A DNA stretch of 33,725 bases, from contig CAYTMY010000001.1 in assembly GCA_964439075.1 (NCBI GenBank), positions 1 through 33,725 of the forward strand, given 5' to 3'. The DNA comes from an uncultured Lachnospiraceae bacterium (GTDB taxonomy: Bacteria; Bacillota; Clostridia; Eubacteriales; Anaerofustaceae). Position 1 is the stretch's first letter. Every line of letters starts with the position of its first letter. Below, piece after piece: positions 19,929 to 20,648 of this stretch. The notes under the pieces were generated by a model. That model worked only from the letters and a program-made list of their open reading frames with translations, did not search any database and was not told the origin of the DNA. Position numbers and translations under genes: made by a program.

Positions 19929-20648
19929 TCAGTAGAAAAATCCGGTGTGAGAATTTTTATATTCCGAAATACGTTCTTTGTAAGCATCCATACTTTCATT
20001 TTCAAAAATAAGTTTTGGGTTTTTCACACCTAATTCATATAATAATTCAATCGTAAAATATGGGTTTAGAATAAGTAACGGACCGATGACATAGGTTGCA
20101 TGAAAATTATTTTTTCTCAAACCTTCTTTTTTTGTGTTTTTGTTAAAGCCTACGCCTTTTTCAGTAATAAAAAGCGGCGAAATATTATCATCCGAATAAT
20201 ACGAATAGGTGAATTGGCTTTTGTACCCAACGATTTCCGTATTATTAAATTTCCCCAAATAAAGAGAATTGTATCTGTTCATCATGTCTCGACGCGTTGT
20301 AATGGGAAATATATGCAATCCTTTTGTATAAGTACCGTCAATATCGATTATTCCACGTCCGAAAATTTCCAATGCATTTCCGGTTATAAGAAAGTGGGTG
20401 TCCCTTTCTATCAGTTCCGATATTCTGTCTTTATAAGCGGAAAGCTCGTTAATGACCATTAATTGAGCATCTTCCGTCATGCTGCCCATATATATAAGGT
20501 CCACATCATTATCGGCAAAATACGGACGTTCGTTTATATGAGTTTCTTTAATTATCGTATTCTCTATTGAACCTTTTATATATCTGATATTTCCCAAATC
20601 GCCATACAAATTGCATATTTCGGGGAACAGAATTTCAATCAACAACAT
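19929..20648 (-). CDS. GatD-like (CobB/CobQ-type GATase_3) protein that apparently lacks the catalytic Cys and His
   Basis: 239 aa, collinear with my recollection of S. aureus GatD (NLYGDLGN; VDLIYMGSMTEDAQ vs CDIFFIGGGSDREQ; KKEGLRKNNFHATYVIGP vs KKEGIHYKNLLGTYLHGP). The nucleophile elbow reads FLITGNALEIFG, so Thr89 takes the place of Cys. The His position reads YVIGP, so Ile188 replaces His. The start overlaps the MurT-like stop by 10 nt. Confidence 0.8.
   Translation of the reverse strand: MLLIEILFPEICNLYGDLGNIRYIKGSIENTIIKETHINERPYFADNDVDLIYMGSMTEDAQLMVINELSAYKDRISELIERDTHFLITGNALEIFGRGIIDIDGTYTKGLHIFPITTRRDMMNRYNSLYLGKFNNTEIVGYKSQFTYSYYSDDNISPLFITEKGVGFNKNTKKEGLRKNNFHATYVIGPLLILNPYFTIELLYELGVKNPKLIFENESMDAYKERISEYKNSHTGFFY

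Follow-up and report, generated by a model that had tools for sequence, protein, structure and literature searches.

An uncultured member of the Lachnospiraceae carries a gene pair of the MurT/GatD type in which the GatD-like protein has lost the residues that split glutamine, while its partner ligase looks active. The pair is part of a stretch of 33,725 nucleotides (contig CAYTMY010000001.1, positions 1 to 33,725; “the window” denotes this whole stretch), with the GatD-like gene at positions 19929–20648 and the MurT-like gene directly upstream at 20639–22021, both on the reverse strand. Gram-positive bacteria depend on MurT/GatD for an essential step of cell-wall synthesis that is also a drug target, and the hallmark of its mechanism is a Cys-His-Asp triad shared between the two subunits. 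Because the glutamine-splitting residues are gone from a protein whose partner ligase still appears functional, the pair would have to obtain its nitrogen or amine in another way. The reading favored here is that both proteins form a complex of the MurT/GatD type and that neither subunit contributes to glutaminase chemistry any longer: the large subunit would still be an ATP-dependent, carboxylate-activating ligase, and the small subunit would have been kept as a docking, activation and gating partner on the MurT C-terminal domain, where it might form the entry and the gate for a nucleophile on its way to the acyl-phosphate. This nucleophile would be ammonia or ammonium, taken up directly from the anaerobic surroundings in gut or digester, which are rich in ammonia. 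As product, one would expect an amidated carboxyl of a cell-wall precursor, e.g., the D-iso-Glu of lipid II; homology and the chromosomal housekeeping context make a peptidoglycan-precursor carboxyl the most likely acceptor. It appears highly probable that the GatD-like protein has no glutaminase function and is an obligate partner of a ligase that is active. For the reading as a whole, i.e., an ammonia-using MurT-type ligase with a glutaminase-dead GatD-like subunit, the chances are about even, and free ammonia or ammonium, as the single most likely donor, is given slightly less than that.

The open reading frame (ORF) of the small subunit, 239 amino acids in length, is intact and passes the Pfam profile GATase_3 (PF07685) with 33.4 bits at a cut-off of 27. 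Its best relatives among solved structures are S. aureus GatD (5n9m/6gs2; E 4e-14) and the GatD proteins of S. pyogenes and S. pneumoniae. A preliminary description of the sequence had proposed collinearity with S. aureus GatD, and the phmmer match is indeed collinear over residues 10–222 (~26% identity). It had also suggested a comparison with the GATase_3 profile and the GatD structures, which points the same way: an AlphaFold2 model computed from an alignment of 37 homologs (predicted local distance difference test, pLDDT, 95.2; predicted template modeling score, pTM, 0.92) matches all GatD structures in Foldseek with template modeling (TM) scores of 0.80–0.85, with 5n9m/6gs2 on top at 0.84–0.85, and other class I amidotransferases (HisH, Pdx2) with only ~0.55. 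The additional C-terminal helix that is specific to GatD is present as well (residues 216–231). Moreover, the ATG of the GatD-like gene (at 20648) lies within the MurT-like gene, which stops with TGA at 20641–20639; this overlap of 10 nucleotides (20639–20648, reverse strand) indicates translational coupling, as had been noted for the intact ORF earlier, and overlaps of 1–14 nucleotides recur at homologous loci. However, both proteins stay below the NCBIfam equivalog cut-offs: the GatD-like protein scores 60.9 bits against 450 (NF052463) and 56.9 against 400 (NF045636), and the MurT-like protein 173.8 and 159.1 bits against 800. The small subunit descends from GatD, yet it fails the catalytic features by which GatD is defined.

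The loss of these features was followed in two sets of homologs: at least 120 close homologs including the window protein (the 119 others share 50–61% identity with it), and a more distant set, obtained by searching 1.84 billion representative proteins with a family profile at E ≤ 1e-30, of which the best 150 matches contain 134 full-length representatives at ≤50% identity. At the nucleophile elbow, three alignments by phmmer and MAFFT pair the S. aureus nucleophile Cys94 with Gly90 (codon GGA, 20379–20381, reverse strand) inside the sequence T89-G90-N91, and Thr89 with Ile93; the AlphaFold model agrees, with a strand at residues 85–89 and a helix at 90–96. The preliminary description had placed Thr89 at the Cys position, which is off by one residue, but the elbow is free of Cys in either case. 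Its placement of Ile188 (codon ATC, 20085–20087, reverse strand) opposite the catalytic His holds, as the alignments pair this residue with His189 in the HGP motif of S. aureus GatD. Likewise, no Cys follows residue 12: Cys12 (codon 20613–20615) is the sole Cys of the protein and is found in 76% of the close homologs and in 45% of the representatives. The absence of both catalytic residues extends to all 119 other close homologs, in which the Cys column is occupied by Gly and the His column by Ile, Leu or Thr, so that the substitutions are not due to chance. The protein is predicted to be incapable of Cys-His glutaminase chemistry.

The changes reach beyond the two catalytic residues. The oxyanion-hole glycines of S. 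aureus GatD, G60 and G95 (PMC5871853), align with Ser56 and Asn91 in the window protein. In the family, Ser/Thr takes the place of G60 and Asn that of G95 (Asn in 100% of the close homologs), and the two glycines, like Cys and His, are replaced in 119/119 close homologs and in ~149/150 distant representatives. In the same pocket, Q98 has become E94, D63 has become E59, and the E-N-H of the canonical GFENHGG has been replaced by K143-S144-Q145 of GYKSQF (20214–20222, reverse strand), which is invariant among close homologs. GSMTED and GYKSQFT stand where canonical GatD has GGGSD and GFENHGG; these blocks had been called degraded, and they are clearly changed, but what replaced them are clade-specific motifs that are equally invariant. 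T89, G90, N91, E94, K143 and Q145 are conserved in 100% of the 119 close homologs. An alternative Cys/His pair from which the active site could be rebuilt was not found, as the 119 close homologs and the 134 representatives share no further invariant column with Cys or His. The window protein has five His, none of them conserved; column 148, which is His in 85% of the close homologs but not conserved in distant members, is Tyr148 (20205–20207) here. Other features of GatD persist: Tyr15 corresponds to the Tyr that plugs the channel toward MurT (Y17 in S. aureus, Y30 in S. pneumoniae) and is Tyr in 116 of 119 close homologs, and the position of S. aureus D19 is acidic (D or E) in 100% of them. 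Arg125, 94% conserved, is located in an N-R dipeptide that resembles S. aureus N127-R128 and is likely the equivalent of the glutamine-capturing Arg (S. aureus R128, S. pneumoniae R142), with loop alignments that differ by one to two residues.

The new invariant residues might be taken as a catalytic site of a different kind. In such an amidohydrolase, ammonia would be released from glutamine, asparagine or another amide by Thr89 or Ser144, acting with Lys143. Amidases that work with a Thr-Lys or Ser-Lys system are well established, close homologs show little or no variation at Thr89, Lys143, Ser144 and Gln145, and the residues that gate the channel from the pocket to MurT have been kept. However, the oxyanion-hole glycines are gone, we know of no precedent for this chemistry in a class I amidotransferase fold, and the candidate residues vary among the 134 representatives: Lys143 is K in 96, R in 17 and another residue in 21; Ser144 is S in 84, A in 19 and T in 18; Thr89 is T in 113 and V or I in 13. 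Since Ala, Val or Gln could not stand in for a catalytic nucleophile or base, we regard this explanation as weak and very unlikely.

The MurT-like gene encodes a protein of 460 amino acids with the Pfam domains Mur_ligase_M and MurT_C, which matches S. aureus MurT (6gs2_B) with an E-value of 8e-45. Conservation was counted over 79 family members, with residue roles taken from the literature (PMC6113224; PMC6085368). The P-loop GTNGKTT (21833–21853, reverse strand) is invariant in the family, and GTNGKT, E108, D110/E111, the acceptor-carboxylate motif G83-x-N85, R133/D134, N267 and R298 are each present in 78 or 79 of the 79 proteins. The Cys-rich zinc-ribbon insertion that is typical of MurT (CPKC…CPHC; 21314–21400, reverse strand) has also been retained in the family. 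The ligase machinery is thus predicted to be intact, with all residues for ATP-dependent carboxylate activation in place. The contacts to the partner appear to be maintained too: S. pneumoniae MurT needs W360 and D361 to hold GatD, W360 being essential for binding (PMC6085368), and the column of W360 is Tyr in 79/79 and the adjacent Asp is present in 78/79 MurT-like proteins.

One residue of the large subunit has changed in a way that bears directly on the triad. Asp349 of S. aureus MurT is the third member of the inter-subunit Cys-His-Asp triad, and MurT D349N as well as GatD C94G or C94S each abolish glutamine-dependent amidation (PMC6113224). In the window protein, the positions of Arg348-Asp349 are occupied by Glu363-Asn364 of HWSENTCW (20930–20935, reverse strand; Asn364 codon 20932–20930). 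The Asp349 position is Asn in 74 of the 79 MurT-like proteins and T, L or V in the remainder, and the Arg348 position is Glu in 79/79, within the invariant block HWSEN(T/I)CWLYDCDFE. As the Cys and His of GatD and Asp349 of MurT have all been replaced, the loss of the triad is coordinated across both proteins, and the case for a lost glutaminase is stronger than the preliminary description, which considered the small subunit, could know. Filing the small protein as the glutaminase subunit of a lipid II isoglutaminyl synthase would be wrong, because Cys, His, oxyanion hole, partner Asp and the NCBIfam cut-offs all fail. A further observation concerns an active-site loop of the MurT-like protein, RNGHPE (residues 144–149; 21575–21592, reverse strand), whose His is found in 78/79 family members; the preceding TNLSRD presumably is MurE-like. 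All MurC-F ligases use a loop His to bind Mg2+, and the loop of canonical MurT is without it (PMC6085368).

The loss of Cys and His is the defining trait of a large and old clade rather than a peculiarity of the window gene. At 50% identity, the matches of the profile search form at least 284 clusters. The best 150 matches score at least 188 bits against the family profile, whereas the canonical GatD proteins of S. aureus and S. pneumoniae reach 66–83 bits. In the 134 representatives of full length, the Cys column is G in 121, S in 11, N in 1 and A in 1, and most of them have L, I, V, T or S at the His column. A His at the His column occurs in one of the 150 distant representatives, and a Cys one position later in another one, so that both catalytic residues are absent in ~149/150. 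The clade is marked by the motifs G(T/S)MTE, ITGNAxE..G, G(Y/F)KSQF and TY(V/I/L)(I/L)GP. A scan of one genome per GTDB species recovered 469 loci with family-specific motifs, 80 of which were used for comparisons at the level of the locus. Nearly all of these 80 loci belong to Bacillota from gut, rumen or digester, with metagenome-assembled genomes that come from anaerobic digesters and from the gut of humans, goats, chickens and rabbits; where a record bears the name Bacteroides, Bacteroidaceae or Alistipes, mis-binning is the probable reason. Two of the carriers are cultured species, Lentihominibacter hominis (strain NSJ-24) and Brotomerdimonas butyrica, and both have two pairs as well as the ATP-grasp gene described below. 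NCBI labels the homologs as hypothetical proteins. In one public source, a Cys-less homolog (P0021) bears the name “lipid II isoglutaminyl synthase (glutamine-hydrolysing)”, the second part of which is contradicted by its sequence. A full-text literature search returned no description of a Cys-less GatD clade.

Missing catalytic residues might also be expected of a decaying pseudogene, a frameshift product or an assembly artefact without function, but they are the single point that speaks for this explanation. Selection was estimated from pairwise ratios of nonsynonymous to synonymous substitution rates (dN/dS, Nei-Gojobori), which the preliminary description had named as a check: 161 pairs of the GatD-like gene give a median of 0.15 (range 0.03–0.5), and close pairs mostly fall between 0.04 and 0.12, which amounts to purifying selection. 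The medians of the MurT-like gene and of the ATP-grasp gene are 0.11 and 0.02, respectively. The intact ORF, the confident fold, dN/dS values of 0.03–0.5, 28 invariant columns across 37 aligned homologs, the 469 loci, natural gene fusions and conserved gene order refute decay or artefact, and we consider its probability to be negligible. With Cys and His gone from a gene that is intact, coupled and under purifying selection, the earlier notion of a “pseudoenzyme” is well founded insofar as it means a retained role without Cys-His glutaminase; as a label, it covers only one of several readings. A scaffold and ammonia-entry subunit, an amine-presenting subunit and a subunit with new chemistry would not be separable by sequence.

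The two genes have remained closely linked. Wherever the sequence of a homologous locus extends far enough, the GatD-like gene has the MurT-like gene directly upstream, usually with an overlap, and four homologs (P0133, P0157, P0184 and P0220) are single chains of 698–758 amino acids with the GatD-like match at the C-terminus, i.e., natural MurT-like::GatD-like fusions. Pfam searches on three of them (P0133, P0184, P0220) identified the MurT-like N-terminal part in 3/3 and a passing GATase_3 match in 2/3. At one locus (L087, 5529–7715), the fusion gene is followed by a gene for a class IV (D-amino-acid/branched-chain) aminotransferase. Seven of the 80 species loci (L016, at 2229–4366 and 5616–7738, as well as L017, L018, L020, L053, L075 and L076) contain two Cys-less pairs in tandem, often with an ATP-grasp gene between them. 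The second type of pair carries the motifs GHRSQF and TYSLGP. As the paralogs share only 33–38% (MurT-like) and 42–47% (GatD-like) identity, the duplication is old.

In the window, the MurT-like gene is preceded by a gene for an ATP-grasp carboxylate-amine ligase (PF14397, ATPgrasp_ST; 22041–23063, reverse strand; 340 amino acids from Met6), which ends 19 nucleotides upstream and probably belongs to the same operon. Its mechanically called ORF begins at 23078 (345 amino acids; 23061–23078, reverse strand), but Met6 is the start in public gene calls and in all homologs, so that 23063 is probably the real start. Such a gene is located within 3.5 kb in 38 of the 62 main-type loci in which the available sequence allows the comparison (~60%). 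The ATP-grasp protein has no match among PDB sequences, neither as a single sequence nor as a profile, and a fold search with its model gave a generic likeness only to RimK, Ddl and the L-amino-acid ligase BacD (TM ~0.44). In another lineage (L090, 6001–8132), a 55%-identical ATP-grasp homolog is found beside an alanine-racemase-family gene, in place of the MurT/GatD-like pair; this arrangement is reminiscent of operons in which a ligase and a racemase together serve to attach D-amino acids to peptidoglycan. All other neighbors are housekeeping genes that depend on the lineage (SpoIVA, MiaB, GpsA, cardiolipin synthase, AspRS (aspartyl-tRNA synthetase), pyruvate kinase), and a consistently linked amino-acid supply gene was not found at the compared loci.

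These arrangements bear on the main rival explanation, in which the pair has acquired a new function as an amine or amino-acid ligase. The remodeled GatD-like pocket would bind and present an amine larger than ammonia, such as an amino acid, a D-amino acid or a diamine, and the MurT-like protein would activate the D-iso-Glu alpha-carboxyl or another carboxyl of the stem peptide or a surface polymer; different paralogous pairs could add different groups, and the ATP-grasp ligase a further residue. We consider this possible but rather unlikely. It would account for new polar and charged residues exactly at the former substrate pocket (E94, K-S-Q, E59), for the retention of R125 (94%), the probable equivalent of the substrate-capturing Arg, and for the change of the pocket-facing MurT-like loop, in step, to HWSEN. 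It also agrees with the invariant MurT-like loop His, a feature of the amino-acid-adding MurC-F rather than of canonical MurT, with the diverged tandem pairs, with or without ATP-grasp gene, in 7/80 species loci, with an ATP-grasp partner that resembles RimK, Ddl and L-amino-acid ligases and in another lineage adjoins an alanine-racemase-family gene, and with the aminotransferase gene that follows one of the fusion genes. On the other hand, the pocket residues are located at the subunit interface, where docking or gating alone could conserve them, and two pairs could equally well amidate two different carboxyls with ammonia; one or the other could account for each of the points above. Amino-acid supply genes are not consistently linked at the compared loci, and a literature search found no matching cell-wall chemistry reported in the carrier taxa; searches on MurT paralogs, MurT in B-type peptidoglycan, PF14397 and Anaerovoracaceae peptidoglycan returned nothing relevant either. 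In its most specific form, this explanation would make the Cys-less pairs an unrecognized class of cell-wall peptide-tailoring ligases, in which the former glutaminase domain serves as a binding module for an amine or amino acid and a group other than ammonia is placed on a stem-peptide carboxyl; this form is somewhat less likely still. If true, it would fit peptidoglycans with substituted alpha-carboxyls or with 2–4 (B-type-like) cross-links, a chemistry for which we know of no assigned enzymes, and tandem pairs together with the ATP-grasp ligase would build a multi-residue branch.

The reading as a glutaminase-dead subunit of an ammonia-using ligase is based on simpler assumptions. S. aureus GatD-C94G together with MurT still amidates lipid II with NH3 at pH 8.5 (PMC3266927), and GatD is still required by MurT when ammonia is supplied (PMC3266927; PMC6085368). 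This precedent, the simplicity of the scheme and the ammonia-rich habitats of the carriers are the reasons for which ammonia is regarded as the likeliest donor, and the need of MurT-type ligases for a docked GatD partner would explain why the small subunit has been kept. Several observations weigh against it. The former glutamine pocket has not drifted but holds new invariant polar residues (T89, N91, E94, K143, S144, Q145, E59), two Cys-less pairs that diverged long ago have been maintained next to each other in some genomes, and the invariant His in the MurT-like loop, which is absent from canonical MurT, is left unexplained. Furthermore, S. aureus MurT/GatD uses no ammonium at neutral pH (PMC3266927).

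The remainder of the window has the look of an ordinary chromosomal region from a spore former of the Clostridia, with genes for RecU, Der, SpoIVA, YidC and the valyl- and isoleucyl-tRNA synthetases (ValRS and IleRS). Upstream of the latter two are T-box leaders (Rfam RF00230, 108 and 99 bits) at 12598–12792 and 31175–31385, both on the reverse strand. A forward-strand gene at 18560–19927 runs toward the GatD-like gene, the two stop codons being separated by one base, and encodes a predicted multi-pass membrane protein of 455 amino acids with a C-terminal RraB-like match below the Pfam cut-off; being conserved only in the nearest relatives (L005 and L007), it is probably not part of the system. 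Two sizeable ORFs have no Pfam match: one at 12951–14378 (forward strand, 475 amino acids) with a counterpart in the syntenic locus L005, and one at 23453–24607 (reverse strand, 384 amino acids), just upstream of the ATP-grasp gene, for which none of the other compared loci has a counterpart. At 25885–28005 (forward strand), a leucine-rich-repeat protein of 706 amino acids is encoded beside a small rhodanese-domain gene, an arrangement that is kept in L005 and L007. A sporulation-specific role, which the SpoIVA, LysM and M50 neighbors might suggest, was rejected, as this synteny is confined to one lineage and the neighbors in other carriers are unrelated housekeeping genes. An origin in defense, a mobile element or a plasmid was likewise rejected: nothing in the window points there, and the flanks are formed by RecU, Der, SpoIVA, YidC, ValRS and IleRS.

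If the family is considered as a whole, a large share of the diversity that is labeled, or likely labeled, MurT/GatD appears unable to use the triad mechanism and is nevertheless strongly conserved (at least 284 clusters and 469 GTDB species, mostly gut Clostridia). For the Cys-less proteins, annotations as “lipid II isoglutaminyl synthase (glutamine-hydrolysing)” are wrong. The clade represents a natural experiment on how an amidotransferase complex might survive the loss of its glutaminase, and it points to either ammonia-dependent amidation or undescribed cell-wall chemistry in abundant gut anaerobes. The amidation state of peptidoglycan affects sensitivity to lysozyme and defensins as well as recognition by NOD receptors. 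With L. hominis and B. butyrica in culture, the question is directly testable.

Among known systems, the combination of an ATP-grasp ligase with a Mur-family ligase is reminiscent of cyanophycin synthetase CphA1, in which an ATP-grasp domain and a Mur-ligase-like domain attach an amine to a peptide carboxyl. The introduction of a study on archaeal ligases supports the comparison (PMC11915815). We do not favor it: unlike CphA1, the linked ligase belongs to a different ATP-grasp family (PF14397), the NCBIfam match to cyanophycin synthetase is weak (E 5e-4), and a cyanophycinase is not linked. A split, cyanophycin-synthetase-like polymerase was rejected on these and related grounds, i.e., the absence of the ATP-grasp gene in ~40% of loci, the weak model match and the lack of linked polymer genes. 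The GATase_3 domain of the cobyric and cobyrinic acid synthases CobQ/CobB (PF07685) is of the same Pfam family and fold sub-family as GatD (PMC5871853), but these enzymes keep Cys and His and are fused to a CbiA-type ATPase domain, whereas the partner of the GatD-like protein is a Mur-type ligase.

The closest overall likeness is to MurT/GatD lipid II isoglutaminyl synthase itself (S. aureus SA1708/SA1707 and S. pneumoniae; PDB 6gs2, 6fqb, 5n9m). Both share the overlapping two-gene operon and the domain architecture, the GatD fold including the additional C-terminal helix (TM 0.85), the P-loop, the Mg2+ and acceptor-carboxylate residues, the Cys4 ribbon, the interface Tyr/Trp-Asp and the channel-plug Tyr. 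Unlike MurT/GatD, the clade shows the triad changes Cys to Gly, His to Ile/Leu and MurT Asp349 to Asn, replaced oxyanion-hole glycines, new invariant motifs, an added MurT-like loop His, a frequently linked ATP-grasp gene and occasional tandem pairs. The nearest item in the literature to a Cys-less GatD clade are the archaeal “MurT-like” ligases of pseudomurein producers, relatives of MurT that evidently work without a glutaminase: species that have only MurT-like lack a GatD homolog (PMC11915815). These ligases have no GatD partner at all, whereas in the Clostridia clade the partner has been retained, conserved and sometimes fused. For the mechanism, the engineered S. aureus GatD-C94G with MurT (Munch et al., 2012; PMC3266927) provides a laboratory model of the possible natural mode, as it carries the same Cys-to-Gly change. 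Unlike in the natural proteins, His189, the oxyanion hole and MurT Asp349 are all still present in the mutant complex, which needs pH 8.5, while the natural clade has rebuilt the whole pocket together with the facing MurT loop and is under selection in that state.

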